Below, piece after piece: positions 16,019-42,820 of a DNA stretch of 64,000 bases. Position numbers and translations under genes: made by a program. Source of the DNA: an uncultured Alphaproteobacteria bacterium. Lineage in GTDB: Bacteria > Pseudomonadota > Alphaproteobacteria > HIMB59 > GCA-002718135. The notes under the pieces were generated by a model. That model was not told the origin of the DNA. It did no database searches and saw nothing but the letters and a program-made list of their open reading frames with translations. Location: positions 30,988-94,987 of the forward strand of contig CACNAF010000002.1 in NCBI GenBank assembly GCA_902618385.1, read 5' to 3'. Position 1 is the first letter of the stretch, and each line of letters begins with the position of its first letter.

Positions 16019-16020
16019 TT

Positions 16021-16191: not shown

Positions 16192-16226
16192 ATAAAATTT
16201 TCGTGCAAAAAGTCTATATTTTTTCC

Positions 16227-17075: not shown

Positions 17076-17089
17076 CAGTAAATAAGAAT

Positions 17090-17983
17090 TTACTTCATGC
17101 CTGTCAAAGTAATTCCTTCAATAAATCGTTTTTGCGCGATTATAAAAGCAACAATAAGGGGTACTGTTACTGTAACTATCGAAGCCATCATAGGACCAAA
17201 TTCATCACTATCAATTCCACCTCTGAATTCTCTTATACCAAGTGGTGGAGTAAAGAGATCTCTATTTCCTGTTATTACCATACGAGGCCAGAAATAATCA
17301 TTCCAGTGTGCAACAACTGAGAATATTGCAAAAGCAAGTAACGCTGGTATTGCAGTTGGAAGCATTACTTTCCATACGATTGCGTACTCTCCCATGCCGT
17401 CCATCCTGGCGGCATCAATTAATTCATCGGGCACAGTCATAAAAAATTGCCGCATTAAAAAAATTCCAAACACCGATATAGTCCAGGGAAGTATCAAGGC
17501 GGAATAGGTGTCAACTAATCCTGCCTGGGCCAACATAACATATAATGGAAGCGCAATTCCGTGAACTGGTATGAGCAAGCAAAATAAAACCATCGAGAAA
17601 ACAAATTCTCGTCCGTAAAATCGTAACTTGGCAAGTGCATACGCGCACGGTAAGGCGACTAAAACCTGAATGATGAAGATTGATAAAGTAACAATGACAC
17701 CATTCATTAAGTATCTAGGAATAGGAGCTTTTTCAAAAGCAAACCAATAGTTGTATTGATATGGCTTCATTGTACATGTTTCTTCTGAATAGCCAGTTTT
17801 AACACACACGGGAAACGTTTGAGTTTCTTGCGCACCAATAAGACCACCAGAAATTGATTGGATTTCTTGCTGAGATTTTAATGACATTGAAACCATCATA
17901 TAAAAAGGGAGCATCACTACGATTGCACCAATAATTAAGATTGCATGCTTCCAACCTTCTCCAATATATTGTTTAGCTTCCAT
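17090..17983 (-). CDS. CUT1-family ABC permease (UgpE/MalG-like)
   Basis: 297 aa with 6 TM segments and an EAA loop (DAARMDGMGEYAIVWKVMLP). Confidence 0.85.
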   Translation of the reverse strand: MEAKQYIGEGWKHAILIIGAIVVMLPFYMMVSMSLKSQQEIQSISGGLIGAQETQTFPVCVKTGYSEETCTMKPYQYNYWFAFEKAPIPRYLMNGVIVTLSIFIIQVLVALPCAYALAKLRFYGREFVFSMVLFCLLIPVHGIALPLYVMLAQAGLVDTYSALILPWTISVFGIFLMRQFFMTVPDELIDAARMDGMGEYAIVWKVMLPTAIPALLAFAIFSVVAHWNDYFWPRMVITGNRDLFTPPLGIREFRGGIDSDEFGPMMASIVTVTVPLIVAFIIAQKRFIEGITLTGMK

Positions 17984-18939
17984 TAATAATGAACCCTCTT
18001 CTCAATGACATATCTTTGGAAAAACGTTAAAACAAGAATAAATCCAATAAAGACAACAGTGATTGCTGCACCGATACTTGTTAAGTTTTGTTGAATAGCT
18101 TTTTCAAAGATTGCATACATCATGACATACGTTGTTTTTGATGGACCACCTTTGGTCAGTATTTCGATTGTATCAAATACTTGAAACGTTCTAATTGTAG
18201 TAATAGTCACAACAAACAACGTTGTTGGACCAAGCATTGGCCATGTAACAAGTTTAAATTGCTCCCATGTAGATTTAGCCCCATCCATTTCTGCAGCTTG
18301 GTATAACTCCCTTGGTATACTTGTTAAGCCAGCTAAATATAAAACCATATTAAAACCAAAAGCCTGCCAAATTCCTATGAAACATACTGTCCAAATCGCA
18401 GTATTTTTTTGTTTTAACCAATATGGAAAATCCATGTTGTTTGCACATGCTACAGCATACCAGCTTTCTTGTGAGTCTACCCATGGCAACCAATGAAAAC
18501 CAAGAATGAATTCCCTAACTCCTCCACACCCATTCGCTAAAAAACTATTTACAATTCCTAATGTTGGATGAAGAGTAAATTCCCATGCAATTGCCATTGC
18601 AAGAAGAGTTGCCATAACTGGAAGAAAAAAAATTGTTTTATATATATCAGCGCCAAACCTTAGTGAGTTTAAAAGCATAGCAGCACATAATCCAAGTACA
18701 ACAGAAATTGGAACGACAACAATAACATACGTCGCTGTGGCCCAAATCATTTTGACATATGTTTTTCGATTGAACATCTTGTCATAATTTTCTAGTCCAA
18801 CCCACTCGAATGTTTTGTTTCCTAAATTGTAGTCAGTAAAAGAAATACCTCCTGCAAGAAAAAGAGGAAAGATTAAAATAATTATCATCAGTATGATTGC
18901 TGGTGCAATAAACCATATGTGAGCTTTTGAATTATGCAT
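17983..18939 (-). CDS. CUT1-family ABC permease (UgpA/MalF-like)
   Basis: 318 aa with an EAA loop (QAAEMDGAKSTWEQFKLVTWP). Its stop overlaps the start of the next permease. Confidence 0.85.
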   Translation of the reverse strand: MHNSKAHIWFIAPAIILMIIILIFPLFLAGGISFTDYNLGNKTFEWVGLENYDKMFNRKTYVKMIWATATYVIVVVPISVVLGLCAAMLLNSLRFGADIYKTIFFLPVMATLLAMAIAWEFTLHPTLGIVNSFLANGCGGVREFILGFHWLPWVDSQESWYAVACANNMDFPYWLKQKNTAIWTVCFIGIWQAFGFNMVLYLAGLTSIPRELYQAAEMDGAKSTWEQFKLVTWPMLGPTTLFVVTITTIRTFQVFDTIEILTKGGPSKTTYVMMYAIFEKAIQQNLTSIGAAITVVFIGFILVLTFFQRYVIEKRVHY

Positions 18940-20065
18940 TAGTAAATTGAACTCTCATTCCTGCTTGATTAAATAGTAATGCTTTATCTGAAACTCTTTT
19001 AATATTCACACTAGAACCGTTTGAAATTTGGTGTGTAAATTGAGGTAAGCCCCTTACAATTATTTTATTTGAACCGTCTTCAATATTTACATGAAAGAAA
19101 ATATCTGAACCTAAATTTTCTCTATATGCAACTATTCCACTAAATGTATTGTCATTACTTTCATTTGTAATTTCTAAATGTTCTGGTCGAATACCAATAT
19201 GTAAATCTGTATTACTTTCAGAACTTTTTCTTTTTAAATTAACGTTGAGAAAACTTACTGTCCCACTTGAGTCCGAAGTTCCTTCAAATATATTTATTTT
19301 TGGACTTCCAACAAACTGAGCCACACTTAATGAGGAAGGATTGTCATATACTTCTTGAGGTGTATCAAGTTGTAATAAATTTCCATCAATCATAACAGCC
19401 ATTCTAGAAGACATAGTTAATGCTTCTGCTTGATCATGTGTAACGTACACAAAAGTAGTTTTAAGTGAATTATGAAGTTCAGATAGTTCAGAACGCATGT
19501 GAACTCTCAAAGCCGCATCTAAATTTGAAAGAGGCTCATCCATTAAAAAGGCAACAGGCTCTCTTACCATAGCACGACCAAGAGCAACTCTTTGTCTTTG
19601 ACCACCTGACAATTGTCCAGGTTTTCTATCTAATAGTTCTGAAATTTTTAAAGTTTCAGAAGTTTTATTTACTAATTGATTTATAGATTCTGTTTTCTCT
19701 TTTTTGCTTGGAGAAAAATTACCAATCAAGGGTAGTCTTTCAAATGCATTATAATCTCTAAGTCTTAATGGAGTTTCTAAATTTCTTCTTACTGTGAGAT
19801 GAGGATAAAGAGCATATGATTGGAATACCATCGCCAAATCTCTTTCACTGGCTCTAACTCTATTTACATTTTTATTATCTATTAATACATCACCCGAAGT
19901 TTGTTGTTCCAATCCTGCAATTATTCTAAGTAATGTAGATTTACCACAACCAGATGGACCAACTAATGTTAAGAATTCTCCATCGTTTATGTCAACATTC
20001 AAATTATTAAGTACTTGTGTAGACCCAAATGACTTTGAAATATTTTTAAGTGATATAGTCCCCAC
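18932..20065 (-). CDS. CUT1-family ABC ATP-binding protein (UgpC/MalK-like)
   Basis: Walker [10 protein letters not shown], signature LSGGQRQRVALGR, Walker B FLMDEPLSNLD, and a C-terminal regulatory domain. GTG start with GGGGGA 6 nt upstream. Confidence 0.88.
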   Translation of the reverse strand: MGTISLKNISKSFGSTQVLNNLNVDINDGEFLTLVGPSGCGKSTLLRIIAGLEQQTSGDVLIDNKNVNRVRASERDLAMVFQSYALYPHLTVRRNLETPLRLRDYNAFERLPLIGNFSPSKKEKTESINQLVNKTSETLKISELLDRKPGQLSGGQRQRVALGRAMVREPVAFLMDEPLSNLDAALRVHMRSELSELHNSLKTTFVYVTHDQAEALTMSSRMAVMIDGNLLQLDTPQEVYDNPSSLSVAQFVGSPKINIFEGTSDSSGTVSFLNVNLKRKSSESNTDLHIGIRPEHLEITNESNDNTFSGIVAYRENLGSDIFFHVNIEDGSNKIIVRGLPQFTHQISNGSSVNIKRVSDKALLFNQAGMRVQFTNA

Positions 20066-20134
20066 TCATTCCCCCTCTATGTTAACTTTAATCTACAAAA
20101 TTTTATTAAATTTGAGAATATTTTAAATCTATTT

Positions 20135-20164
20135 ATTTCAGTTTTATTTCAATTTTATTAACAA
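20135..20164 (-). promoter_or_regulatory. candidate Pho box (three phased heptamers) facing the ugpC-like operon
   Basis: The minus strand reads TTGTTAA-n5-TTGAAAT-AAAA-CTGAAAT. TAAAAT follows 9 nt downstream. The site is about 70 nt upstream of the GTG start. Confidence 0.45.
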
Positions 20165-20241
20165 ATATTCAAATTATCATTGAGTTTAACTAGCAGATAA
20201 CTATAAATTCTTATTTTTAATAATATATATTAGATGAATTT

Positions 20242-21483
20242 GTGTCCGATAACTTAGAAATTAATAAAAGAGAATATCCAAGTAATTTTTCAAAAACTGC
20301 TATTGTGATTTGCCTTGATGGTAGTCAAAAAGAGTATCTCGAAGAAGCATCAAAATCAAATCTTACACCAAACCTTGATAAATTAATTGCAAGTGGTGAA
20401 AACCTACTAGTACACAGCGCTATTCCAAGTTTTACAAATCCAAATAATATTTCGATTGTAACAGGCCAACCAAGTTCTGTTCACGGTATATGCGGGAACT
20501 TCTTTTATACACCCGAGACCGGTGAAGAAGTAATGATGAATGACCCAAAATATATGCGAGCACCAACTATTTTTGAAAAATTTTATAATTCTGGTTCTAA
20601 AATTGCTCTGGTTACTGCAAAAGATAAGCTGAGAACACTTTTAGGAAATGGATTAAGTTTTGATGATGAGAGAGCTATTTGTTTTTCTGCTGAAAAATCT
20701 GATCAAGCAACAAAAGATCTCAATGGTATAGATAATGTAAACGATTGGTTAGGGATGCCAGTGCCAGAAGTATACTCTGAAGAACTTTCTGAATTTGTAA
20801 TGGCTGCAGGTGTAAAGCTTCTTGAAGAGTTCAAACCAAATATCATGTATTTATCGACTACGGATTATATTCAACACAAATATGCGCCAGGAAATGAAAC
20901 AGCAAATAAATTTTATGCAATGTTTGATAAATATATTGGTCTTTTAAATAAGGAGAATGTTTCTATAATTATCACAGCAGATCACGGTATGAAACCAAAA
21001 TCAAAAGAAGATGGTTCACCTAATGCAATATTTTTACAAGATTATTTAGATAAAAAATTTGAACCAAACATGGCTAAAGTTATTCTACCAATTACAGATC
21101 CATATGTTGTGCATCATGGTTCACTTGGTTCTTTTGCAACAATTTATTTAGAAGACAAAAGTAAGATAGATTCAGTTGTAAATGCTATAAAAGAAATAAA
21201 AGATATAGAAGTTGTTTTAACAAAAGACGAAGGATGCTCTACTTATAATTTACCTCCAGATAGAATGGGGGATATTATATGTATGTCTTCAGAATTTATG
21301 ACTATTGGTTCATCAGAAGATAAACACAATCTTTCTGGATTAAATGAACCTTTACGTTCACACGGTGGACTTCATGAAAGAGAAGTGCCATTCATATCAA
21401 ATTTAAAATTACAAAATTTAGATACTAACAAACAATTATATAACTATGATGCATTTTACTATGCAATTAACGGAGCCCTATGA
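20242..21483 (+). CDS. phnA: phosphonoacetate hydrolase
   Basis: Alkaline-phosphatase/NPP superfamily. Nucleophile motif [14 protein letters not shown], plus TADHGM and SHGGLHE. 413 aa with a GTG start. Overlaps the following ALDH by 4 nt, as in characterised phnA-phnY pairs. Confidence 0.82.
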
Positions 21484-22922
21484 TGCACAAAAAAATGATT
21501 AATGAAGCAATGCGTATTGCTGGAGAAAAAGTTACCTCAGATAAAACAATAAATGTTGAGTACCCTTTTACAGGTGAAGTAATCGGAACGGTTCCAGCCG
21601 GTACTGCAGAGCATGCAAGAAAGGCTTTAGATATTGCTGCAAATTACCAACCTAAACTTACAAGATACGAGAGACAAAAAATTCTTCAAACTGCTGCAGA
21701 AGTACTTGTTAAAAGAAAAGAAGAAATTTCTGATATTATTACTTTAGAACTTGGTATCTCAAAACAAGATTCTTTATACGAAGTAGGAAGAGCTTTTGAT
21801 GTCTTTTCATTAACGGCTCAACTTTGTATTCTTGATGATGGAGAAATATTTTCTTGTGATTTAACTCCGCATGGAAAAGCGAGAAAAATATTTACCATAA
21901 GAGAACCTTTAACGGCAATTTCAGCAATCACTCCATTTAATCATCCTTTGAATATGGTAGCGCATAAAATTGCACCTTCAATTGCAACTAATAATTGTAC
22001 TGTATGTAAACAAACAGAATTAACACCCTTAACAGCAATGGTACTTGCTGATGTTTTATATGAAGCAGGTTTACCACCAGAAATGTTTTCAGTTGTAACT
22101 GGATGGCCTCAAGACATTGGATCAGAAATGATCAAAAATCCAAACATTGATCTCATTACTTTTACAGGCAGTGTAGGTGTAGGAAAATTAATTGCTGAAC
22201 AAGCTGGATACAAAAGAACAGTTCTTGAGCTAGGCGGTAATGATCCTTTAATTGTTTTAAACGACTTAGATGGTGATGATCTTAAAAAAGCTGTTGAGCT
22301 AGCTGTTACTGGAGCAACGAAAAACTCTGGTCAACGTTGTACAGCTGTTAAAAGAATACTGGTTCAAGAATCCATTGCAGATCAATTTGTTGAAATGGCT
22401 CTTGAGCGTGCTAAGAAAATTAAATTTGGTGATCCTATGAATATGGAAACAGACTTAGGTACGGTTGTTAATGCTCAAGCTGCAGAACTTTTTGATAAAA
22501 GAGTTTCTATGGCTGAAGAAGACGGTGCAAAAATTTTATATCACCCTGGAAGAAAGGGTGCTTTGTTACCTCCAATAGTTGTAGATCATGTTGATCCTAA
22601 AAGTGAATTAGTTTTAGAAGAAACATTTGGTCCAGTTATCCCAATCATTCGTGTGCCTAATGACGATGAAGCTGTAATGAAAATATCTAATTCAACCGCA
22701 TTTGGATTATCATCTGGTGTATGTACAAATAACTTCATGCGAGCAAAAAAATATATTCAAGGTTTAAATGTTGGAACTGTAAATATTTGGGAGGTTCCAG
22801 GCTATAGAATTGAAATGTCTCCTTTTGGAGGAATTAAAGATTCAGGTCTTGGTTATAAAGAAGGAGTAATTGAAGCAATGAAAAGCTTTACTAATGTAAA
22901 AACTTTCTCGCTACCTTGGTAA
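21480..22922 (+). CDS. phnY: phosphonoacetaldehyde dehydrogenase (NAD-dependent aldehyde dehydrogenase)
   Basis: ALDH motifs ELGGNDP, catalytic Cys in GQRCTAV, and EETFGPV. The call rests on translational coupling to phnA and on phnW nearby. Confidence 0.78.
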
Positions 22923-22977
22923 AAAAACAAGTTTTTCTCTAATTTTTTTATTTCTGTGGAAAAATAAGCTTATTTTT

Positions 22978-23006
22978 TAGTAATATTTTCGTAATAAAAT
23001 TGTAAC
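22978..23006 (+). promoter_or_regulatory. candidate Pho box (three 11-bp-phased heptamers) upstream of the UgpB-like SBP
   Basis: TAGTAAT-ATTT-TCGTAAT-AAAA-TTGTAAC, 53 nt upstream of the ATG. A strong GGGAGG SD sits at 23048-23053. Confidence 0.5.
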
Positions 23007-23058
23007 CCTTTCTAGCTACATGTTAGATTAAATTATTATATTCAATCGGGAGGATTAA

Positions 23059-24312
23059 ATGAAAAAATTAATTACAGGATTGGCAGCCGTATTAGCTTTC
23101 GGTTTTTATGGTTCTGTTAATTCAGCTAAGTCTATTGAAATAGAAGTAGCTTATCCTTATTCAGGATTATTCGATGTAACGTTTCAAGCTATTATGCCAG
23201 AGTTTGAAAAAGCGCATCCAGATATTCAAGTTAAATTTAGAGCAACTTATGAAAACTATGAAGATGCAACTGCAACAATTTTTAGAGAGTCTACTTCAGG
23301 TAACTTACCAGATGTAACGATGCAAGGTCTTAACAGACAAGCACCTCTAGTAGATAAAGGTATTGCAAAGTCTTTAGAGCCATTTATTGCAAAAGAAGCA
23401 GCTTTTGAAAAAGATGGTTACCATTCCGCTATGTTAAGTCTTTCAACATTCGGTGGTGAAGTTTATGGATTACCATTTTCTGTATCAACGCCAGTTGGAT
23501 ATTACAACATGGATCTATTAGCTGAAGCAGGTGTAGATAGTATTCCAACTAACTGGGACGAAGTTATTGCAGCATGTAATAAATTGGAAGCAGCAGGTAA
23601 AGGAACTCTATACTTTGGTTGGAACATCACAGGTAACTGGTTCCACCAAGCATTAATGCATACTCAGAACGTTCCAATGGTTAAAGATGGAGCTGTAAAT
23701 ATGGGTGGTGATGCAGGACTTGCAACGTTAGAGCAAATGAAAGCAATCATGAGTGGATGTAATATGCCAAACTATTCAATTGCTGATGGTCAAGCTGCGT
23801 TTAACGCAGGTACTATTGGTATGATGTTCTGGTCTACTTCAAGCTTGGGTTCAGTTAATGCTGCAAAGGCAGACTTTGTTTTAAAAACTGCACCATTCCC
23901 TGGAATGGCTGGAGTAAACAATGGAACACCAGCAAGATTACCAGCAGGTGGAAACGCTGCAATGTTAGTGTCTACATCTGATGATCCAGCAAGAGTTGAT
24001 GCTGCATGGACTTTCTTAAAGTTCATTACATCAGGTATCGGTGCTGCATTAGTTGCTGAAACAACTGGATATGTTCCACCAAATAAAGCAGCGAATGATT
24101 TATTAGGTGACTTCTATAGTCAAAACCCTAATAAACTTACTGCTGTTGAACAACTTCCACTTCTTGCTGATTGGTTTGCGTATCCTGGAGAAAATGGATT
24201 AGCTGTTACACAGGTAATCTATGATTTCACGGAAGAAATTGCTACAGGTGACGCTGATGATATGGCAGATCTTCAAGAAGAAATGATGGAAGAAATAAAC
24301 GATCTTATGTAA
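23059..24312 (+). CDS. family-1 extracellular solute-binding protein, UgpB-like (glycerophosphoryl or organophosphorus ligand inferred)
   Basis: Signal peptide. Colinear with E. coli UgpB as I recall it (HPDIQVKF..YENYED, FSVSTPVGYYNMDLLAEAG, TGYVPPNKAA). It has its own strong SD and terminator. Confidence 0.75.
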   Translation: MKKLITGLAAVLAFGFYGSVNSAKSIEIEVAYPYSGLFDVTFQAIMPEFEKAHPDIQVKFRATYENYEDATATIFRESTSGNLPDVTMQGLNRQAPLVDKGIAKSLEPFIAKEAAFEKDGYHSAMLSLSTFGGEVYGLPFSVSTPVGYYNMDLLAEAGVDSIPTNWDEVIAACNKLEAAGKGTLYFGWNITGNWFHQALMHTQNVPMVKDGAVNMGGDAGLATLEQMKAIMSGCNMPNYSIADGQAAFNAGTIGMMFWSTSSLGSVNAAKADFVLKTAPFPGMAGVNNGTPARLPAGGNAAMLVSTSDDPARVDAAWTFLKFITSGIGAALVAETTGYVPPNKAANDLLGDFYSQNPNKLTAVEQLPLLADWFAYPGENGLAVTQVIYDFTEEIATGDADDMADLQEEMMEEINDLM

Positions 24313-24342
24313 TTTGAGATTATTTATTATTAACTTTTTATT

Positions 24343-24375
24343 ACAGCGGCTTTATAAAAGCCGCTGTTTTATTTT
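24343..24375 (+). terminator. rho-independent terminator or attenuator after the SBP gene
   Basis: ACAGCGGCTTT-ata-AAAGCCGCTGT (11-bp stem) followed by TTTATTTT. Confidence 0.8.
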
Positions 24376-24399
24376 AAATTTAAATGGGAGTAAAAATAG

Positions 24400-25479: not shown

Positions 25480-25483
25480 TGTA

Positions 25484-26596: not shown

Positions 26597-26598
26597 TA

Positions 26599-27705
26599 AT
26601 GAAAAAAAATTTCAGGTTTTATGATAACAGACAAAAATACTTGCTATTTGTCACAACAACAAATGAAAAAAATCAAATTGCTGATGCTATACGCCCTCAC
26701 GTAAATAAAATTAAACCTCAAAAACCTGGCATAAAAATATTTGATGCTGGTATGGGTGATGGTTCCTTACTTATGAATGTTATGCGTCAGTGCCACGAGG
26801 CTGAGCCTAACGTACCTTTATTAGTTTGCACAAAAGAAATAAGCATAGAAGATGTAAGATTAGGTTTAGAAAAGTTACCCGATAGGTTTGTTGAGCATAA
26901 GAATACCGTTTTTGTCATTTCAAATCTACACTACGCGGAAGCCGCAAACCTAAAATCAAAAAATGAAGTTAAACAGAAAAAAATTAATTGGAATATTATT
27001 AAATTAAAAGGAGATACCTCTCTTGAATTTGCCCAACAATTAAGAGAACAAAATGAATTTCTAGAAAAAAAATGGAATATAGAAATTAATAAAAAATCAG
27101 GTAACCATACTTATAAAGAGCCTTCAGTCATGGTTATCTACCGCGAAGATCAAGAATTTAATGTTAATGAATTAATACCTACCAAAAAAAAATCAGATAA
27201 TAAATTTGATCTTATTATTGCTTCACAGCCTTATCGTTCAAGAATTTCAGCAGAAAAGAAATCAAAATACGTCATCGAACCAATGATTCGAGCGTTAAAA
27301 TCAAAAGGGAAATTATTAACTATTCATGCTTCAGGAAAAGATCCTGCTAATGAAATAATTCGTAAAATTTGGCCAAAAGAGAACCCATTTCCTTCTCTTG
27401 GAAATAGTATCATTTCTTATCTTAAGAAAAATTTAGATAAAGATCTATTAAGTAGTTTATCGTTTGGAGAAAAAAGAATTATTAAATGTAAATTGAGAGC
27501 TCTACCAACAGAAATCAGTGGAGGTATAGCGACATCATTAGTTTTTTCTGCTTGGAATGCGTCCATATATGTCAATCAAATGGATGATGATCAAGTAATG
27601 AAGGTAGAAAAAACAAGAAATTATGAAAAAGTAGTCCAGAAAATAGTTTCAAAAAATAAAGGCCTTTATTTTAACAATGAAATATTTGTAATCGAAAAAA
27701 AATAA
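26599..27705 (+). CDS. class I SAM-dependent methyltransferase-like protein with a large internal insertion, function unknown
   Basis: Motif I IKIFDAGMGDGSLL, acidic post-I residue in CTKEIS. After about 120 aa come motif II FDLIIASQPY and motif III LKSKGKLLTI. 368 aa. Confidence 0.55.
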   Translation: MKKNFRFYDNRQKYLLFVTTTNEKNQIADAIRPHVNKIKPQKPGIKIFDAGMGDGSLLMNVMRQCHEAEPNVPLLVCTKEISIEDVRLGLEKLPDRFVEHKNTVFVISNLHYAEAANLKSKNEVKQKKINWNIIKLKGDTSLEFAQQLREQNEFLEKKWNIEINKKSGNHTYKEPSVMVIYREDQEFNVNELIPTKKKSDNKFDLIIASQPYRSRISAEKKSKYVIEPMIRALKSKGKLLTIHASGKDPANEIIRKIWPKENPFPSLGNSIISYLKKNLDKDLLSSLSFGEKRIIKCKLRALPTEISGGIATSLVFSAWNASIYVNQMDDDQVMKVEKTRNYEKVVQKIVSKNKGLYFNNEIFVIEKK

Positions 27706-27709
27706 TTTT

Positions 27710-28498
27710 TTATTTAAACCAATTAACTTCTGTTTTTAAAAAATCCTCTGTATGAATAATTAATGCGTCAGATCGAATTATTGCAACATTATAATTTGTA
27801 TCTGTATTTGCCGTTCCTAAACGATATTCATTTGAAAAGTTAGGTATTAGAGGAGACCAAGTACTTCTTGGGGAGGAAAAAGTAATACCACAATAAGAGC
27901 CAGAACTTGTAATGTGTTGATGACCAAAAAAAATATGTTTTATTATCTTATTATTTTTCGTTAAAATTTGTTGAAACTCTTTTTTTTGTTGTAATCCTAT
28001 TCCATCACTTTCCTCTTTTACTAATGCCAGTGGATTATGATGCATAAAGATGTACGTATCCGTATTAGTCTTACTTAAAATATTATTTAACCATTCTTGC
28101 CTCTCTTCACAATAATGTCCTTGGTGAGTGTTAATCAGATTAGTATCTATAAAAATTAAACGTTTATTATCTATATCCTTAAAGTATTGAATAAATCCAT
28201 TTGGATCGGTTTCAATATTAGGAAAGTTTATTTTAAATTCATCTCTGTTATCATGATTACCTATAATTAGTTGAGGATTTAAATTCTTCGGCAGACCTGC
28301 TTCATCAATTATTTTTAAAAATAACTGATAAGAATCTTTATCACCTAAGTCTGTAATATCACCTGTGATGGCAAATAAATCTGCATCACCATGATTATTT
28401 TTTATATGAGTTAATGCTTTTTTAAATTTACTGACAGGATCTATGCCATGAATCTTATCTATATAAATATGAGGGTCTGAAAGGTGAATAATTTTCAT
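27710..28498 (-). CDS. metallophosphoesterase, GpdQ/CpdA-like phosphodiesterase
   Basis: All calcineurin-like motifs are present: HLSDPH, TGDITDLG, GNHDNR, FMHHNP, GHQH. Colinear with Enterobacter GpdQ as I recall it. 262 aa. Confidence 0.8.
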   Translation of the reverse strand: MKIIHLSDPHIYIDKIHGIDPVSKFKKALTHIKNNHGDADLFAITGDITDLGDKDSYQLFLKIIDEAGLPKNLNPQLIIGNHDNRDEFKINFPNIETDPNGFIQYFKDIDNKRLIFIDTNLINTHQGHYCEERQEWLNNILSKTNTDTYIFMHHNPLALVKEESDGIGLQQKKEFQQILTKNNKIIKHIFFGHQHITSSGSYCGITFSSPRSTWSPLIPNFSNEYRLGTANTDTNYNVAIIRSDALIIHTEDFLKTEVNWFK

Positions 28499-28518
28499 TA
28501 TTAAATATAAATTTATAA

Positions 28519-29151
28519 TTAAATCGCAGTTTTAAAATAAATATACTTATTAAATTCTTCTTTTAAGTCGATGCTAACTCTTGCATGTACTTTACCTTGT
28601 TTTCCTTGAAACGATTGTTTTTCTGTAACTGGAAACACCCCTTCATGCCAAATATTTGGATGAATATACAAACCTTTTGATCCGTCACAATAAAATGCTT
28701 TAAAATGTTCTGGTTCAATGTCGTCTGTAGGTAAGGCTAAAGGACAAATAAATGGTTTATTTTCTGTAGGAAAAAAAAGCTGACCTCCATCAGGATGATA
28801 ATTTGCATGCCATAAAAAAATTTTTGTTGGATCTGAATATTTATCTTTTTGTAATTCTTGATCAGGATTATTGGCATAACCCAGTATATATTTTCCATCT
28901 ACTTCATAATCGCTCTTATGTTGGACAGCATTATTTTGTCCATAAAGCACGTCACCTTGCCACCAGGTATCAAAAGAACCTTCGGTAGTTCCACCTTCAT
29001 TACCAGTTCCCTCTTCTATGTCACGCCATCCTTGTTTTGGCCAAGTAACAATTTCAATATCACTATTTTCAAAACTATCGATTAAATACCCGTATCCTTT
29101 AAGATTTTCATTTGTTGCTTTAACTAAAGGTATTTCAATTTCTTTTGTCAT
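28519..29151 (-). CDS. ureidoglycolate-lyase (AllA)-like beta-barrel protein, function unknown
   Basis: Colinear with E. coli AllA as I recall it: LKGYGYLID vs FSAYGDVIE, ANYHPDGGQLFFP vs ERHPLGTQAFIP, GLYIHPNIWHEGVF vs GVNYHRNVWHHPLF. It carries about 50 extra residues. Confidence 0.6.
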   Translation of the reverse strand: MTKEIEIPLVKATNENLKGYGYLIDSFENSDIEIVTWPKQGWRDIEEGTGNEGGTTEGSFDTWWQGDVLYGQNNAVQHKSDYEVDGKYILGYANNPDQELQKDKYSDPTKIFLWHANYHPDGGQLFFPTENKPFICPLALPTDDIEPEHFKAFYCDGSKGLYIHPNIWHEGVFPVTEKQSFQGKQGKVHARVSIDLKEEFNKYIYFKTAI

Positions 29152-29158
29152 TTTTTTG

Positions 29159-30256
29159 TTAGTTTAATGTTAATCCCAACTCAGTAACAACTTCTTTTAC
29201 AGCTTTTATTGTATCCATCATGTCTTGTTCATTTAAATTACCAATACACCCAATTCTAAAAGTTTCTGCCACTGTTAGTTTTCCTGGATAAATTAAAAAA
29301 TCTTTTTCACTAAGAGCATTATAAAATTTATCAAAGTTAAATTTAGGATCATTAGGATGTTTAAAAGTAATAATAATTGGTGCTTGTAAATTATCAGGAA
29401 GTAGTTGCTCAAATCCCAACTCTTTCATTCCATTACAAATAATTTCACAATTTTTTTTATATCTTTTACCTCTTCCCTCTACACCGCCTTGTTCTTTATG
29501 TTCCTCAATCGCTTGGTTGAATGCAGCCAATACGTGTGTTGGAGGTGTAAATCGCCATTGTTTATTTTTTTCCATTGCTTGCCATTGATCATACAAGTCT
29601 AGACTTAGTGAGTGACTATTGCCTTTTGCATTTTGAATAACTTCATTTTTAACAAGAATGAAACCAACACCTGGCACACCTTCTAAGCATTTGTTTGATG
29701 AAGCGGCTACAGCATCAAAAGTAATTGTTTTAGAACTTAAGGGTAATGCACCAAAGGCACTCATTGCATCGATGAATAACGATAAGTTTTTCCCTTCAAC
29801 CAATTTTGCAATCTCTTCAATAGGATTTAAAATACCCGATGTTGTTTCACAATATACAGCAAAGACGTGTGTTAAGTTGTTGCTATCAATTAACTCTTCA
29901 ATTTTATTGATGTCATGTACTTCATGTTCAGCAACTTCATATTCAATAAAATCTCTCCCTAAATAAGTGCACATTTTTTTCATTCTTTGTCCGTAAGCAC
30001 CATTGATCAGAATCAGAATTTTAGAATCTTTTTGAGTAAGAGAGCTCACCATTGACTCTACAGCAAAAGTTCCACTTCCCTGCATTGGAACACATTGATA
30101 TTTATCTTCACCGTCTATTAATTTAACAAGGGAATCTCTAATTGATGCATTGAGATCAATAAATTTTGTATCTCTCGAACCCCAATCATGAAGCATAGCC
30201 TCTTTTGTTGACATCGATGTCGTGAGAGGACCAGGGGTTAATAATTTTTTATCCAT
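29159..30256 (-). CDS. phnW: 2-aminoethylphosphonate--pyruvate transaminase
   Basis: Class V aminotransferase. LLTPGPLTTS N-terminus and HDWGSRDTKF, as in characterised PhnW. 365 aa. Confidence 0.85.
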   Translation of the reverse strand: MDKKLLTPGPLTTSMSTKEAMLHDWGSRDTKFIDLNASIRDSLVKLIDGEDKYQCVPMQGSGTFAVESMVSSLTQKDSKILILINGAYGQRMKKMCTYLGRDFIEYEVAEHEVHDINKIEELIDSNNLTHVFAVYCETTSGILNPIEEIAKLVEGKNLSLFIDAMSAFGALPLSSKTITFDAVAASSNKCLEGVPGVGFILVKNEVIQNAKGNSHSLSLDLYDQWQAMEKNKQWRFTPPTHVLAAFNQAIEEHKEQGGVEGRGKRYKKNCEIICNGMKELGFEQLLPDNLQAPIIITFKHPNDPKFNFDKFYNALSEKDFLIYPGKLTVAETFRIGCIGNLNEQDMMDTIKAVKEVVTELGLTLN

Positions 30257-30344
30257 TAAATATTTACTTAATAAATATTATTATAAATTTGATCAATCTT
30301 ATTAAAGTTGGAATTGAATTTATTTTCTAATAAGTTAATTATAA

Positions 30345-30920
30345 ATGAGAATGGAAGAAAATATCGTAGATTATCTCTTAGATCTTTTGAAAACAAAAGG
30401 TGCTGATATTCAATATGGTAATGAGGATGTGACTCAGCTTGAGCACGCACTCCAATGTGCTGAACTTGCTGAAAAACATAAATTACCAGGACCAACAATT
30501 GCTGCAGCATTACTGCATGATGTTGGCCACCTTATTTATGAGGACGGCGATCCCATTCATGAAGGGAAAGATGGTCATCATGAAAACTTAGGTGCTGATT
30601 TTTTAAAAAAATATTTTGGTGAAGATGTTATTTTACCAATTAGAGCACATGTTGATTCAAAAAGATATTTATCAAGTGTTGAAGAAGGTTATTATGATAG
30701 TCTATCAGAAGCATCGAAACTTTCGTTAAAAGTTCAAGGCGGTCCTTTCACAAAAGAAGAAGCAGATGCGTTTATCAGCAAACCTTTTATGGATGAGGCA
30801 GTAGAGCTTAGAAGATTTGATGATCTAGCAAAAATTCTAGATAAAAAAACTCCCGATGTTGAACATTTTCGCCCCTATTTAGAAGAAGCAAGACAGTCTT
30901 TTTTAGCTAAACAAGCGTAA
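30345..30920 (+). CDS. phnZ: HD-domain diiron oxygenase PhnZ family (C-P cleaving; 1-hydroxy-2-aminoethylphosphonate dioxygenase-like)
   Basis: QLEHALQCA, AALLHDVGH, HHENLGADFL, AHVDSKRYL and LSEASKLSLKVQGGPF are colinear with characterised PhnZ as I recall it. 191 aa. Confidence 0.8.
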   Translation: MRMEENIVDYLLDLLKTKGADIQYGNEDVTQLEHALQCAELAEKHKLPGPTIAAALLHDVGHLIYEDGDPIHEGKDGHHENLGADFLKKYFGEDVILPIRAHVDSKRYLSSVEEGYYDSLSEASKLSLKVQGGPFTKEEADAFISKPFMDEAVELRRFDDLAKILDKKTPDVEHFRPYLEEARQSFLAKQA

Positions 30921-31445
30921 ATGCAATTTAGCAATTATGATTTTATTGACTCTAAGTCATTTGCAGGAAAAATTATATTAACTTCTTTTCCAGGTCTTAA
31001 CTCTAATGGTTTATTTGAAGAAACAATTTTAGCAAACGAATTAGAAATGTTTAAAAATAATAATTGTAGTTCTATTACTTCTTTTGTTGAAGATAGCGAA
31101 TTTGAAAAATTGTGTGATAAAACTTTGTTTGTCAAAAGTATTTATAAACATAAATTACATTGGTACCATTTACCCATTTATGACATGGGAGCACCAGATA
31201 AAGATTTTAAATATAAATGGGAAACAACAAAAGTTTTATTAAAGAACGAATTGATAGATGGTAAAAATATAGTCTTACATTGTCGTGGAGGAAAAGGAAG
31301 AGCTGGCACTATAGCTGCTATTTTACTTGTTGAATTTAATTATGAAAAACAAGAAGCTATTGATCTTGTACGATCAAGAAGAAAAGGAGCTATTGAATCT
31401 AAAATACAGAAAGATTTTATTTTTTCTTATCGAGCAGTTAATTAA
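30921..31445 (+). CDS. cysteine-dependent (dual-specificity/CDKN3-like) phosphatase
   Basis: P-loop HCRGGKGRAGT (HCX5R-S/T). 174 aa. The ATG directly abuts the phnZ stop. Confidence 0.75.
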   Translation: MQFSNYDFIDSKSFAGKIILTSFPGLNSNGLFEETILANELEMFKNNNCSSITSFVEDSEFEKLCDKTLFVKSIYKHKLHWYHLPIYDMGAPDKDFKYKWETTKVLLKNELIDGKNIVLHCRGGKGRAGTIAAILLVEFNYEKQEAIDLVRSRRKGAIESKIQKDFIFSYRAVN

Positions 31446-32494
31446 AAAGAGACCGTTAAATTAAAAATATTTTCTAGAATAAATAAAACAATTAAAGAAA
31501 TTAAAGCTGCAATTATAGGTAGCGTCATCCAACCCAAAGAAATTCTACCCGCAATTGACCATTGAACCTCTTTTCCTCCTTTTAAAAGACCAATTCCAAT
31601 TACGCCGCCAACAACAGCTTGGGAACTTGATACTGGTACCAAAGGTATAGAGGGAAGATTTATAGATTGTAAAAAAGCACTTATGCCCTGGGATGCAAAT
31701 AAAAATAAAACAATAGAATGCGATATAACAACAATAAATGCTGCCACTGGTGTCATTTTTAAGAGATCATTACCCACGGTAAACATAACTCTTTTCGAGT
31801 AGGTAAAAACACCAACAGCTATGGCTAAACCACCCAGCAGAAATAGTTGTTCTTTTGAGGAAAAGACAAATAAATTTCCAATAGTAACATCAGTAAACGG
31901 TGATATAGGTACGAAGACACCCATTACATTGGCAATATTGTTTGCACCTAAACTATAAGCACCAAAAGCACCGGCTAAAAGTAAAGCTGTTCTTGTATAG
32001 GCATCAAGTCTGAGAATATGTAACTTTCTATTGAGTATAACTCTTTTTGTAAAAGTAAATAAACCCATTGCAATAACTCCTGCAATAATAGGACAGAGTA
32101 TCCATGTTCCTAAAATAGTAATTAAAACTTGAAGATTAGTTGAAGATCCCGTGTATAAATTCCAACCAACAATTGCTCCAACAATCGCTTGCGTTGTAGA
32201 AACAGGCAAGCCAACTTTGGTCATTAAATAAACGGATATGCCTGCAGCCACACATGCTGCAAAGGCACCAGGTAATGCATTAATAGCACCTAACTTACCT
32301 AAAGTTTCTGTTGTTCCTGCTCCACTAATAATTGCACCTAGAATAACAAAGACACTACAAATTATTGCTGCACTTGTGAAACTAACCATTCGCGTCCCAA
32401 CAGCAGTTCCAAAAACATTTGCTGCATCATTGGCGCCAAGTGACCAACCTAAAAAAAGACCACCAAATAAAAAAATCAGAATTGTAATTTCCAT
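31442..32494 (-). CDS. inorganic phosphate transporter, PiT (PHO4) family
   Basis: Duplicated GANDAANVFG and GANNIANVMG signature. About 10 TM segments. 350 aa. Confidence 0.88.
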   Translation of the reverse strand: MEITILIFLFGGLFLGWSLGANDAANVFGTAVGTRMVSFTSAAIICSVFVILGAIISGAGTTETLGKLGAINALPGAFAACVAAGISVYLMTKVGLPVSTTQAIVGAIVGWNLYTGSSTNLQVLITILGTWILCPIIAGVIAMGLFTFTKRVILNRKLHILRLDAYTRTALLLAGAFGAYSLGANNIANVMGVFVPISPFTDVTIGNLFVFSSKEQLFLLGGLAIAVGVFTYSKRVMFTVGNDLLKMTPVAAFIVVISHSIVLFLFASQGISAFLQSINLPSIPLVPVSSSQAVVGGVIGIGLLKGGKEVQWSIAGRISLGWMTLPIIAALISLIVLFILENIFNLTVSF

Positions 32495-32500
32495 TGAAAA

Positions 32501-33163
32501 TTAAACGGAGCGTTTAATAGCGTAAATTTGAACCTCGTCAGCTATGTCTTCTGCTTGATCACAAATACGATCAATCTTCTCTACAAAATATCGAAGATGC
32601 ATTTTTTGATCTAGAGGTAATTCAGAATCAAAAATTCTTCTTGCAAGTGCACTAAATTTTATATCAGATTCTTTTTCATAAAAAGTTACTTTATGAGCAT
32701 TATCTCTAACAGATTTAATATCTCTAAAAAATGATCTTACAGTTAAACATAATGATTCAACACAATTTACAACAGTCTCTGTTAACTCAATAAGATCTTC
32801 ATGAAATTCTTTTGGAAAATTAGGTTTTTGAATAGAGAAGTGATAGCAATTTCCTTGGTACATTCCAATTAATTCGTCGATGTGTTCTAGAAGTCGTAAC
32901 ACATCACTTCTTGCATCTGGGATTAGTGTTTCTTCATAAAGAGTATGCTCAACATCTTTCGTAATTTTGTCGGCCTTACTTTCCATTTCTTTAACTTTTT
33001 CAACCATTTCCTCAAATTTACCATTGGCGGAATGATTGAGATAAGTTGGAACTATCGATTTAAATACTAAGCCCACTTCAGAGACAATATCAACAAACTC
33101 ATCAATTTCTCTTTCAAGCTTTTTGGTATCACCAAATAATGATGCACTTTTTAATCCAAACAT
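32501..33163 (-). CDS. DUF47 / PhoU_div family protein (PiT-associated regulator)
   Basis: 220 aa, helical. Conserved position immediately upstream of pit. Confidence 0.8.
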   Translation of the reverse strand: MFGLKSASLFGDTKKLEREIDEFVDIVSEVGLVFKSIVPTYLNHSANGKFEEMVEKVKEMESKADKITKDVEHTLYEETLIPDARSDVLRLLEHIDELIGMYQGNCYHFSIQKPNFPKEFHEDLIELTETVVNCVESLCLTVRSFFRDIKSVRDNAHKVTFYEKESDIKFSALARRIFDSELPLDQKMHLRYFVEKIDRICDQAEDIADEVQIYAIKRSV

Positions 33164-33200
33164 GGCGTGCTTATAGAACTTTTTAAAAAAAAAGAAAGAA

Positions 33201-33218
33201 ATGTTAAATTTTTGTTAC
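33201..33218 (+). promoter_or_regulatory. candidate Pho box upstream of the small membrane protein and arsC
   Basis: ATGTTAA-ATTT-TTGTTAC, then TAATAT 8 nt downstream. Confidence 0.4.
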
Positions 33219-33286
33219 AATTTGATTAATATCTTTATCTTTAAGTAAAGTGTAATATTCGCAATCTATAGAATTTAGGAGAAGAT

Positions 33287-33514
33287 ATGACAGATTTATC
33301 AATTAATAGAATTAAGTGGTTTAGCACCGCGTTAATTTTATCAGGAATATTATTAACCAATTTAAATGCGTATCCAATTAACATAATTATTCACGGTACA
33401 GGTGCTGTTGGTTGGTCAATTGTTGGTTATATGACAAAAGATAGAGCTCTGCTCACAAACTTTGGTTTACAACTCCCACTATTTATTTTTGGATATATTT
33501 ATTTGCTGACATGA
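33287..33514 (+). CDS. small 3-TM membrane protein, unknown function
   Basis: 75 aa with three hydrophobic helices. AGGAG lies 6 nt upstream. Its stop overlaps the arsC start (ATGA). Confidence 0.55.
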   Translation: MTDLSINRIKWFSTALILSGILLTNLNAYPINIIIHGTGAVGWSIVGYMTKDRALLTNFGLQLPLFIFGYIYLLT

Positions 33515-33930
33515 AAAATAAAAATATTCTTTTTATGTGTGTTGCTAATTCAGCAAGAAGTCAAATGGCTGAAGGAATTGCAAAAAAATTATATCCTAAT
33601 TGTATTATTCAAAGTGCAGGATCAGTGCCCAAAGAAGTTAATCCCAATGCTATCGAGGTTATGGGTGAAATCGATATTGATATATCAAAACATTATTCAA
33701 AAGATTTTGAAAGTTTAGACAAAAAATTTAGAGATGAATTAAATACCGTTTTTACGCTTTGTAAAGAAGAGGTATGTCCAGTTTTAAATTCCAAAGCTCA
33801 GATATTTTCAATACCATTTGATGATCCAGCATCAGATCATTTTAGTTCAAACCAATTAAATAAATTTAGAGAAGTAAGAGACTCAATTTTTATTAAATTG
33901 AAAGAACTAAAAAATTTATTTGAAAACTAA
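33511..33930 (+). CDS. arsC: arsenate reductase, LMW-PTP (thioredoxin-coupled) type
   Basis: CVANSARS (CX5R) P-loop, TLCKEEVCP Cys pair, and FDDPA. Confidence 0.82.
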   Translation: MKNKNILFMCVANSARSQMAEGIAKKLYPNCIIQSAGSVPKEVNPNAIEVMGEIDIDISKHYSKDFESLDKKFRDELNTVFTLCKEEVCPVLNSKAQIFSIPFDDPASDHFSSNQLNKFREVRDSIFIKLKELKNLFEN

Positions 33931-42757: not shown

Positions 42758-42779
42758 AAATCTTAAATTTTTATAAAAT

Positions 42780-42805: not shown

Positions 42806-42820
42806 AATACTAAGTTATAA

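Follow-up and report, generated by a model that had tools for sequence, protein, structure and literature searches.

Optional gene cassettes around a predicted 2-aminoethylphosphonate and 2-hydroxyethylphosphonate pathway in an uncultured alphaproteobacterium

We analysed a stretch of 64,000 nucleotides (nt) from an uncultured alphaproteobacterium (contig CACNAF010000002.1, positions 30,988 to 94,987; from here on the window) which carries a block of phosphorus-related genes at 17-34 kb. We found that this block is the phosphonate (left) half of a phosphorus-acquisition region of about 33 kb, which extends from about 14.4 to 47.7 kb. We are highly confident that the island is composed of a pathway leading from 2-aminoethylphosphonate (AEP) and 2-hydroxyethylphosphonate (HEP) to phosphonoacetate, together with optional cassettes. 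The genes that a preliminary description of this DNA had left unassigned fall into cassettes that are gained and lost separately, namely an ATP-binding cassette (ABC) importer with its solute-binding protein (SBP) and a MetE-like protein, the PhpC-type alcohol dehydrogenase (ADH), and a phosphodiesterase. Plausibly, the cassettes import C2 organophosphorus compounds that are esterified or methylated and channel them to phosphonoacetaldehyde (PAA). Our preferred reading adds to this pathway and its cassettes a dealkylation carried out by the MetE cassette and control of the island by PhoB; taken as a whole, this reading is tentative and falls a little short of being probable.

The proteins of the window were compared with Pfam and NCBIfam profiles and their scores judged against the curated cutoffs. 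The scan covered the open reading frames (ORFs) of at least 100 amino acids (aa) across the 64 kb, except the ORF at 47-427 and a SET-like stretch at about 40.1-40.7 kb. All 17 genes listed in the preliminary description were found where it had placed them, and the folds it had given for them were borne out by these scans. A 368-aa protein encoded in the block was then used to scan one genome per GTDB species, which gave at least 547 carriers; the best 80 loci were fetched with 10-kb flanks and compared with the island proteins by tblastn. Genes of the phn type are present in 37 of these 80 loci. The whole comparative sample comprised 80 plus 80 loci, and 17 more that were fetched around single proteins; individual loci are given below by their L numbers. 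The window has a GC content of 31%. Marine metagenomes and GORG single-cell genomes are the sources of homologues of its genes, the latter bearing the labels 'uncultured Alphaproteobacteria', 'Pelagibacteraceae' or 'Candidatus Pelagibacter'. Accordingly, the host is a streamlined marine alphaproteobacterium of the SAR11/HIMB59 type.

The AEP and HEP pathway and its optional cassettes

PhnA, phosphonoacetate hydrolase (20242-21483, plus strand), scores 470 bits with TIGR02335 against a cutoff of 408, and PhnY, phosphonoacetaldehyde dehydrogenase (21480-22922, plus strand), scores 797 bits with TIGR03250 against a cutoff of 636. The two genes overlap by 4 nt in an operon-like manner. PhnW, the 2-aminoethylphosphonate:pyruvate transaminase (29159-30256, minus strand), scores 510 bits with NF010006 and 458 bits with TIGR02326, the cutoffs being 296 and 401. 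Since each of the three exceeds its curated cutoff, the assignment of a bona fide PhnW-PhnY-PhnA system stands. PhnW is predicted to convert AEP to PAA, which PhnY would oxidise to phosphonoacetate, and PhnA would then free acetate and phosphate. These enzymes make up the phosphonoacetate branch of the hydrolytic AEP route, which is present for example in Sinorhizobium meliloti and in many marine bacteria. As in the known systems, all three enzymes are present and phnA and phnY are operonic. However, phnW is located here in a separate, opposite operon with an AllA-like gene and a phosphodiesterase gene, there is no LysR regulator, and no recognised AEP transporter (AepXVW, PhnSTUV or AepP) is found within the block. 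Consistent with the preliminary description, the scanned ORFs of the window include no carbon-phosphorus (C-P) lyase, no PhnX, no 2-oxoglutarate (2OG) dioxygenase and no regulator of the LysR/GntR type.

A second ABC system is located upstream in the window. An SBP_bac_6 protein is encoded at 3104-4117, a double permease in one fused ORF at 4135-5730 and, convergently on the minus strand, an ATPase at 5734-6780. Its best NCBIfam matches are to parts of 2-AEP transporters (PhnS, PhnU2 and PhnT2 types), all of them far below cutoff. A Pho-box-like repeat with one mismatch lies at 6790-6806, directly upstream of the ATPase gene. This system could be a candidate for the AepX/PhnS-type AEP importer which the island itself lacks.

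The iron-family ADH (25484-26596, plus strand) had been counted among the genes that no described route explains. This can no longer be maintained, as its best family by far is PhpC/TIGR03405, for which HEP oxidation in clusters with phnY-phnA was published in 2026. It scores 362 bits with TIGR03405, which is below the cutoff of 424, and 157 bits with the next best family; it is thus given here as a PhpC-type, predicted HEP dehydrogenase. PhpC/TIGR03405 enzymes oxidise HEP to PAA, and a HEP dehydrogenase is regarded as catabolic when it is clustered with phnX or phnY-phnA in a cluster that is not biosynthetic (Piazza et al., Protein Sci 2026, PMC13576164). In the window phpC is on the strand of phnY, 2.5 kb downstream of it, and no pepM, aepY or phosphonate-attaching transferase gene was found among the scanned ORFs. 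The match of the ADH to the PhpC family suggests that HEP would enter the pathway at PAA and pass through phosphonoacetate to acetate and phosphate, a route already described. The presence of phpC within AEP operons had also been seen before (Lockwood et al. 2022, PMC9381506).

The PhpC-type iron-family ADH together with phnY-phnA is a feature which the window shares with the catabolic HEP clusters of Piazza et al. (PMC13576164). It differs from them in that its ADH falls below the family cutoff and in that AEP and HEP genes are combined in a single cluster, an arrangement called infrequent in that study. PbfG, an unrelated zinc-dependent ADH (Zn-ADH), does the same HEP job as PhpC according to the same study, which places it in non-proteobacterial phyla. 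Loci related to ours have this other, Zn-ADH type at the corresponding position. The text of PMC13576164 mentions neither methionine synthase nor MetE nor methyltransferase. The iron-family ADH was also considered as PbfF, the HAEP racemase, and this was ruled out because PbfF is a PF02826 protein.

The same genes might instead serve biosynthesis, with PhnW and PhpC running toward HEP, a methyltransferase dependent on S-adenosylmethionine (SAM) modifying the product and the MetE-like protein recycling homocysteine. The equilibrium of PhpC and PbfG does favour HEP (PMC13576164), such a role was proposed by Lockwood et al. for phpC in AEP operons (PMC9381506), and phpC is flanked by a methyltransferase gene and a methionine-synthase-like gene. 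However, the biosynthetic genes named above were not found in the scanned ORFs, the cluster contains PhnY-PhnA, an importer and Pho-type neighbours, and the methyltransferase is mostly located away from phosphonate genes. We therefore regard a biosynthetic role as very improbable.

We found that the order of the island genes is kept, at 85-100% aa identity, in about 30 independent single-cell genomes. A second lineage has the same order at about 55-90% identity, with most genes at 70-90%. The block is thus a conserved phosphonate and phosphate acquisition neighbourhood, as had been proposed. The limits first set for it, 17090-33930, were too narrow, since an EamA gene belongs to the ABC operon on the left and phosphorus genes run to 47667 on the right.

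Three architectures were observed. The window and about 28 loci have the order EamA-UgpEAC, PhnA-PhnY-SBP-MetE-like-PhpC-methyltransferase, phosphodiesterase-AllA-like-PhnW, PhnZ with a dual-specificity phosphatase, and PiT-DUF47. In a second form (L002, L028 and L039) the ABC, SBP and MetE-like genes are missing and PhpC is retained. In a third (L029, L032, L034, L035 and L048, and also L091) PhpC is absent too, so that PhnA-PhnY is followed by the methyltransferase; neither PhpC nor the ABC, SBP and MetE-like cassette is present in 5 of the 37 phn-bearing loci. The ABC, SBP and MetE-like genes, five in all, are either all present or all absent in the 37 loci, although they occupy two separate positions. 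The phosphodiesterase varies among related loci: it occurs as one of two alleles, with about 98% or about 67% identity, or is missing.

The preliminary description had proposed that all the unassigned genes form one coordinated network which turns esterified, hydroxylated or methylated C2 organophosphorus compounds into PAA. The tight, operon-like packing of the genes and the retention of their arrangement in about 30 close relatives are consistent with this, as is a methyltransferase of 40% identity that heads the ABC-MetE operon in L094 and L096. However, across related loci the genes come and go as separate cassettes, the methyltransferase has a housekeeping context in 43 of 80 loci, the AllA-like protein and the Cys-phosphatase are tied to phnW and phnZ in this lineage only, and the iron-family ADH step is already described. 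A single network is thus improbable. Instead, of the five genes one is now assigned, one is located mostly away from phosphonate genes, two are lineage-specific accessories, and the MetE-like gene is part of a widespread, undescribed cassette of transporter and enzyme whose link with phosphonate breakdown is recurrent but not universal.

The MetE-like cassette in the window and in other taxa

The importer is encoded by overlapping genes of the CUT1 type (17090-20065), all on the minus strand. These encode a UgpC-like ATPase with a TOBE domain (18932-20065; 386 bits against 432 for the UgpC model), a UgpA-like permease (17983-18939; 103 against 335 for UgpA) and a UgpE-like permease (17090-17983; 128 against 297 for UgpE). 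The last gene of this operon, 14 nt after the UgpE-like gene, encodes an EamA-family membrane protein (16227-17075, minus strand; Pfam EamA) which resembles phn_DUF6 and scores 143 bits with TIGR03340 against a cutoff of 288. TIGR03340 is named 'phosphonate utilization associated putative membrane protein', and the EamA gene is next to phnA in all island variants. The SBP (23059-24312, plus strand) is an SBP_bac_1/8 protein that reaches 66 bits with the UgpB model against 411, and its nearest solved relatives are UgpB-type binders of glycerol-phosphate and its diesters. The CUT1 importer with a UgpB-like SBP on the opposite strand is thus borne out, though all components are below the Ugp equivalog cutoffs. 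With UgpBAEC and its GpdQ/UgpQ diesterase the system shares the CUT1 layout, the TOBE ATPase, the UgpB-nearest SBP and a class III diesterase nearby; it differs in the low scores of all four components and in its constant partner, the MetE-like enzyme, which is not found in Ugp systems. The SBP was also considered as the AEP binder AepX and this was ruled out, as AepX is a PF13343 protein.

The MetE-like protein (24400-25479, plus strand) is a predicted single-barrel zinc alkyltransferase with a Meth_synt_2 match of 122 bits. It scores 194 bits with each of two curated methionine synthase models, against cutoffs of 406 and 392, and 92 bits with full-length MetE against 930. Its best match in the PDB is 3rpd, an uncharacterised structural-genomics protein. 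We found that the motifs CHICCGY, SLEDS, PDCGLG, TTTIGAYP, DGEVRRE and IQIDEP are invariant across 21 MetE-like homologues. We take the zinc ligands to be the His-x-Cys of CHICCGY, the Glu of SLEDS and the Cys of PDCGLG, and presume that TTTIGAYP, DGEVRRE and IQIDEP bind homocysteine. A His-Arg-His cluster follows the Glu zinc ligand. The stretch that, in an alignment by eye, probably corresponds to the MetE region of the folate-stacking Trp contains no Trp. Core-MetE is a single-barrel methionine synthase that uses methylcobalamin (Deobald et al. 2020, PMC7005905). The window protein shares with core-MetE and MetE the Meth_synt_2 barrel, the His-Cys-Glu-Cys zinc site and the homocysteine motifs. 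In contrast to them it is far below every methionine synthase equivalog cutoff and is embedded in a transporter operon, with no corrinoid protein nearby in the window. Since PhpC is retained in the islands of the second architecture, from which the cassette is missing, HEP oxidation as such does not require the MetE-like enzyme. This enzyme should act on the cargo of the importer.

Homologues with 54-73% identity were taken from long contigs and from scans of metagenome contigs. Outside the window clade the cassette is present in at least 12 loci, on contigs with a GC content of 37-70%. The carriers outside SAR11 are labelled as metagenome-assembled genomes of 'Alphaproteobacteria', 'Pseudomonadota', 'Chromatiales' and 'Magnetovibrio', and a cultured model organism was not found among them. 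The order ATPase-permease-permease-SBP-MetE-like is found as an operon in L087-L090, L094-L099 and L101, and in L081 the same cassette genes are divergent from the MetE-like gene. The SBPs of these cassettes are 61-64% identical to that of the window, the ABC orthologues 54-74% and the permeases 58-74%. The SBP genes stand right before MetE-like genes in L087-L090 and L094-L101. The MetE-like family is large, with more than 4,600 clusters at 90% identity in marine metagenomes.

The neighbours of the cassette vary from taxon to taxon. Zn-ADHs matching TIGR03366, a family named 'putative phosphonate catabolism associated alcohol dehydrogenase', are located near it in L087, L089 and L090 (287-300 bits against a cutoff of 328), and the Zn-ADHs of L099 and L108 fall into one sequence cluster with them. 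TIGR03366 probably corresponds to the PbfG family, since the two agree in Pfam family and in description. A PhpC-type iron-family ADH is present near the cassette in L123 and in SAR11-type loci, and one of 45% identity lies beside a PhnD-type ABC system in L083. In L081, L100, L104, L127 and L175 a class III diesterase gene either separates the SBP gene from the MetE-like gene or adjoins them, and L090 contains a sulfatase/PehA-like protein. The phosphonate enzymes nearby are PhnW-PhnA-PhnY in L101 and PhnA-PhnY in L095, L108 and L123; in L088 the neighbours are PiT-DUF47 and a PhnD homologue. In L083 (5279-8419) and L175 (1333-4429), unrelated contigs of 55% and 40% GC, the ABC importer is replaced by an orthologous tripartite ATP-independent periplasmic (TRAP) transporter with DctP proteins that are 64% identical. 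A Zn-ADH, a diesterase, an iron-family ADH and a cupin lie between the TRAP and MetE-like genes in L175. Thus two unrelated ADH families, two types of esterase and two types of transporter are exchanged around a constant MetE-like gene, which suggests that the cassette is a functional module rather than a chance neighbourhood. The link of the MetE-like gene with phosphonate genes holds beyond the genome of the window, the neighbours being ADHs of the PhpC or HpnZ/PbfG type, the diesterase or PhnA/PhnY/PhnW.

Genes for methyl transfer are also found near the cassette. L081 carries a fusion of URO-D with a B12-binding domain, MTHFR and a BCCT transporter at 15976-17925, and L089 an MttB-family gene at 1-146. 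Their proximity could be fortuitous, or it could indicate that the solute donates a methyl group.

In our preferred reading the cassette would import a small anionic organophosphorus solute that carries an activated alkyl group, most simply a methyl group. The MetE-like enzyme would move this group onto zinc-bound homocysteine to form methionine, and the dealkylated product would pass to the diesterase and the HEP dehydrogenase and from there to PhnY and PhnA. The conserved homocysteine site suggests the transfer of an alkyl (methyl) group from the imported solute to homocysteine. The UgpB-like relatives of the SBP and the alternative use of a TRAP transporter suggest a small anionic solute, while a diesterase and an ADH as partners suggest that this is an esterified C2 phosphonate. 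Taken alone, the alkyl-transfer mechanism is possible and, in our judgement, somewhat unlikely. Its specific form, in which homocysteine as the thiol dealkylates an imported alkylated C2 phosphonate or ester and the product feeds the HEP dehydrogenase, PhnY and PhnA, is decidedly unlikely.

Several observations weigh against this reading. We know of no natural methylated compound of the HEP type. The residues of the homocysteine site are conserved across the whole family and are thus no proof of homocysteine as the acceptor. Roughly half of the MetE-like homologues whose flanks are long enough have no phosphonate marker close by. Among about 33 non-redundant loci with usable flanks, 13 contain a marker of a phosphonate pathway and 17 contain the ABC importer, and neither is present in the Magnetovibrio-type loci L085, L106 and L107 or in L105, L119 and L174. 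No phosphonate context at all was found for MetE-like homologues below about 55% identity, which suggests that the family comprises more than one function. In several cassette loci (L087-L090) a C-P hydrolase is absent within 9 kb, and the PhpC-like and Zn-ADH proteins of cassette loci are below the trusted cutoffs of their families. Literature searches for a link of MetE-like proteins with HEP or phosphonates found no such paper in the library searched.

Alternatively, the ABC or TRAP transporter and the MetE-like protein could be a transporter-coupled methionine synthase which salvages a methyl group from an onium solute, such as a choline-containing phosphodiester (for example glycerophosphocholine) or a sulfonium compound. 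The cassette would then be located in phosphorus islands because its solute also yields phosphate or because its operon is Pho-regulated. In favour of this, SAR11 is stated to lack both MetE and MetH, and marine bacteria to contain core-MetE homologues without an established function (2025, PMC12478193). The conserved homocysteine site, the similarity of the SBP to UgpB-type binders, the methyl-transfer genes of L081 and L089 and the many cassette loci that contain neither PhnA nor PhnX are also consistent with it. However, in different lineages the cassette is repeatedly found with two unrelated phosphonate-tied ADH families and with PhnA, PhnY and PhnW, and in the window it sits between phnY and phpC. 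We judge methyl salvage to be rather unlikely.

It is also conceivable that the MetE-like protein is a zinc hydrolase or lyase that acts on PAA or a related phosphonate, in other words an analogue of PhnX, which together with the transporter and the HEP dehydrogenase would form a self-sufficient HEP pathway. This would fit L087, L089 and L090, which have a phosphonate-type ADH and no PhnA, PhnY or PhnX within 9 kb, and L085, L106 and L107, in which a generic aldehyde dehydrogenase follows the MetE-like gene; the His-Arg-His cluster could also be read in this way. However, PhnY-PhnA are already present in the window, and even so the presence of the MetE-like gene follows that of the importer and not that of PhpC. 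In addition, all the homocysteine-binding motifs of true MetE are kept and we know of no precedent for such a hydrolase. We consider this role highly unlikely.

Phosphonates make up about one fifth to one quarter of the high-molecular-weight dissolved organic phosphorus in the ocean, and among the consumers SAR11-type cells are the most abundant. For the most part the island confirms known biology, in which AEP and HEP are funnelled to phosphonoacetate, beside a Pho-regulated flexible island. Naming the substrate of the MetE cassette would add either an organophosphorus compound to those known to be bioavailable or a methyl donor to those already known, and would also test the view that SAR11 has no MetE-type methionine synthase. 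If dealkylation by homocysteine were true, SAR11- and HIMB59-type cells would gain a methionine source regulated by phosphorus, and an undescribed methylated phosphonate would be common in seawater.

The methyltransferase and the accessory genes of phnW and phnZ

The 368-aa protein (26599-27705, plus strand) had been called a split methyltransferase. It has a sub-threshold methyltransferase match, the motif FDAGMGDG and an insertion, and a search of the PDB by sequence gave no match. Its AlphaFold2 (AF2) model has a mean confidence (pLDDT) of 74, and in Foldseek it matches histamine N-methyltransferase 1jqe best (E 6e-9, target TM 0.66), with TmtA and GtmA, two thiol methyltransferases, next. 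Based on this model it is a class I small-molecule SAM-dependent methyltransferase. The fold given in the preliminary description thus holds, but the tie to phosphonate genes is loose: in 43 of the 80 loci, all of them labelled Pelagibacteraceae or Candidatus Pelagibacter and with 66-70% identity, no island gene is found within 10 kb of the methyltransferase. That description would have given up its reading if the unassigned genes occurred mostly in genomes without phosphonate genes; at the level of the neighbourhood, this applies in part, namely to the methyltransferase.

To one side of the methyltransferase gene of L078 (9998-11110) lie gpsA, a GATase gene, gshA, gshB and fhs, and to the other lie GNAT, MBL-fold, purK and purE genes. 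None of the housekeeping neighbours of this type is present in the window, which suggests that the methyltransferase gene has moved. For the same reason we rejected the possibility that it belongs to the core genome and that the island was built in around it. It appears as a widespread SAR11 gene with two chromosomal homes, in one lineage (L078 and the other Pelagibacteraceae loci of L036-L080) between fhs/gshAB and GNAT/purEK and in the other lineage in the phosphonate island. The methyltransferase homologue of 40% identity in L094 and L096 (E 1e-102) is located directly upstream of the ABC-SBP-MetE-like operon, which counts against a pure hitch-hiker reading. An ArsM-like arsenite methyltransferase was ruled out, as no Cys is invariant in an alignment of 32 sequences.

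The PhnZ-type protein (30345-30920, plus strand) is an HD-domain mixed-valence di-iron oxygenase. Its metal ligands (H, HD, H, H and D) and the Y-x-x-E pair align with PhnZ (4mlm) and TmpB (6npa), its PDB matches at 104 and 116 bits. Hence the PhnZ-type fold stands as first described, with the iron ligands and the Tyr/Glu pair conserved, but the scores are below all three family cutoffs, as the protein reaches 201 bits against a cutoff of 215 with TIGR03276, 157 against 300 with the TmpB model and 153 against 300 with the PhnZ1 model. With the PhnY*/PhnZ, TmpA/TmpB and PhnY*/PhnZ1 systems the window shares an HD-domain oxygenase whose metal ligands are complete and whose Tyr/Glu pair is kept. 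In contrast to PhnY*/PhnZ and TmpA/TmpB, phnZ is coupled translationally here to a Cys-phosphatase instead of a 2OG hydroxylase, and no TauD/PhyH-type 2OG/Fe(II) hydroxylase (PhnY*, TmpA) was found in any scanned ORF of the window. The oxygenase may act on a phosphonate that is already 1-hydroxylated and is taken up from the environment; the uptake of environmental hydroxy-phosphonates has been argued likewise for the substrates of PbfA and PbfF.

The Cys-phosphatase (30921-31445, plus strand) is a dual-specificity/PTP-like protein (PTP-SAK/DSPc) with the CX5R motif HCRGGKGRAGT, and its gene starts at the base right after the phnZ stop. It accompanies phnZ in the lineage of the window wherever the contig reaches that far. 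In other taxa (L110 and L115) phnZ is followed by an EamA gene and not by the Cys-phosphatase. The AllA-like (ureidoglycolate-lyase-family) protein of 210 aa (28519-29151, minus strand) matches PF04115 and the PDB structure 1xsr with residues 113-182. A full-length AllA match is absent, as only profile positions 76-139 are covered, with 34 bits against cutoffs of 160-282. Its AF2 model, from an alignment of 28 sequences, has a pLDDT of 40, and outside the lineage our search gave no relatives that were informative. In the lineage of the window its gene always adjoins phnW where the contig extends that far, and the phnW clusters of other taxa (L101 and L134) do not contain it. The linkage of the AllA-like protein and the Cys-phosphatase to phnW and phnZ is thus confined to the lineage of the window.

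The last gene of the phnW operon encodes a metallophosphodiesterase (27710-28498, minus strand; Metallophos). The metallophosphoesterase fold was as expected from its earlier naming as GpdQ-like; with 174 bits against 400 for the SpdA model it is more safely called a class III (CpdA/SpdA/GpdQ-family) phosphodiesterase. This enzyme could release phosphonates from monoesters. An operon of a PiT phosphate transporter (31442-32494, minus strand) and a DUF47 (PhoU_div) protein (32501-33163, minus strand), both identified by the Pfam and NCBIfam scans, would handle phosphate in the fixed core of the island, to which PhnW, PhnY, PhnA and the PhnZ-type oxygenase also belong.

Candidate PhoB control and the downstream phosphate island

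The preliminary description had noted that no regulator was present. This is correct inside 17-34 kb but not for the window, in which PhoR, PstSCAB, PhoU and PhoB are encoded 7-14 kb downstream. A motif, TGTAAY-N5-TGTAAY with a period of 11 bp, was defined by eye from the sequences that precede the SBP and DUF47 genes. The candidate Pho box of the SBP gene (22979-23006, plus strand; AGTAAT-N5-CGTAAT-N5-TGTAAC) has three half-sites, lies 53 nt upstream of the gene, and is kept at -53 and -59 in L010 and L030. That of DUF47 (33203-33230, minus strand; ATTAAT-N5-TGTAAC-N5-TTTAAC) lies 40 nt upstream and is found at the same distance in L010, L028, L033, L048, L091 and L093. A perfect Pho-box-like repeat with a third half-site, not used to define the motif, is present at 46945-46972, 12-39 nt upstream of phoB. 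These sites, together with PhoR in the window and PhoB encoded 14 kb downstream of the island, suggest that the island is probably expressed under PhoB.

With at most one mismatch the motif has 6 matches in the window compared with 2.9 expected, and 8 of 100 shuffles reach 6. Weighing against PhoB control, two of the sites that the motif recovers had helped to define it, and its enrichment is only 2-fold. With two mismatches there is none (43 hits compared with 44 expected), and only the sites with at most one mismatch were used. Furthermore, no candidate Pho box was found before phnA or in the divergent region of phnW and phnZ. A sigma-70 promoter scan gave fewer hits than shuffles in the AT-rich DNA of the window and was uninformative.

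Between the SBP and MetE-like genes we found a hairpin followed by a T-run (24343-24375, plus strand), the best terminator-like site in 16-34 kb. Its stem of 11 bp includes 6 GC pairs, its tail is TTTATTTT, and it is likely an attenuating terminator. Such hairpins are common where a binding protein is produced in excess.

Downstream of PiT-DUF47 the phosphorus genes continue. A protein of the low-molecular-weight protein tyrosine phosphatase (LMW-PTP)/ArsC family (33511-33930, plus strand; LMWPc) scores 93 bits with arsC_pI258 against a cutoff of 174; the family fold given for ArsC is therefore upheld and the arsenate reductase cutoff is missed. A hydrophobic ORF of 75 aa (33287-33514) with a good ribosome-binding site overlaps the start of this gene by 4 nt and is probably a small membrane protein that is co-transcribed with it. 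PPK1 (34071-36176, minus strand), a SixA-like phosphatase (36237-36695, minus strand), Ppx/GppA (36728-37633, plus strand) and a MIP channel (37630-38286, minus strand) follow, each recognised by the Pfam and NCBIfam scans. Next are a GT4 glycosyltransferase (38307-39308, minus strand), which overlaps an LpxH/PlcP-like metallophosphoesterase also identified in these scans (39298-40110, minus strand), and a SET-domain ORF at about 40.1-40.7 kb between the metallophosphoesterase and PhoR. PhoR (40666-41718; 303 bits against a cutoff of 334), PstS, PstC, PstA and PstB (41750-46232), PhoU (46232-46942; 207 bits against 130 with TIGR02135) and PhoB (46984-47667; 333 bits against 296 with TIGR02154) are all on the plus strand. 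MurJ and housekeeping genes come after PhoB.

A flexible phosphate island, fGIp, has been described in HIMB59/AEGEAN-169 (Molina-Pardines et al., mSystems 2023, PMC10734472). The window has the same gene set at 33.5-47.7 kb (SET, GlpF/MIP, Ppx, SixA, Ppk, a tyrosine-phosphatase/ArsC-like protein, an LpxH-like protein, a glycosyltransferase, PhoR, PstSCAB, PhoU and PhoB), with the ArsC/LMW-PTP protein equivalent to the 'Wzb' of that paper. In contrast, the phosphonate island of that paper is a C-P lyase island, and its text mentions neither phnA nor phnW nor methionine synthase. In L091 and L093 the SET and MurJ genes directly adjoin DUF47-PiT and no fGIp-type genes are present, which fits an insertion of the fGIp part next to a more stable phosphonate segment.

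Further downstream, at 52000-60000, the GC content of the window is 23-28% over housekeeping genes (tsaB-like, rimI, miaB, phoH, ybeY, corC, lnt and trmB), with no sign of foreign DNA in the gene content. The ArsC-like protein and the MIP channel are found in the same phosphate island and neither reaches its curated cutoff; we presume that they could be a pair for arsenate reduction and arsenite efflux, which would be sensible where Pst and PiT import arsenate. The pair of GT4 and LpxH-like genes at 38307-40110 resembles the PlcP/Agt lipid-remodelling pair, with which marine bacteria replace phospholipids when phosphorus is scarce.

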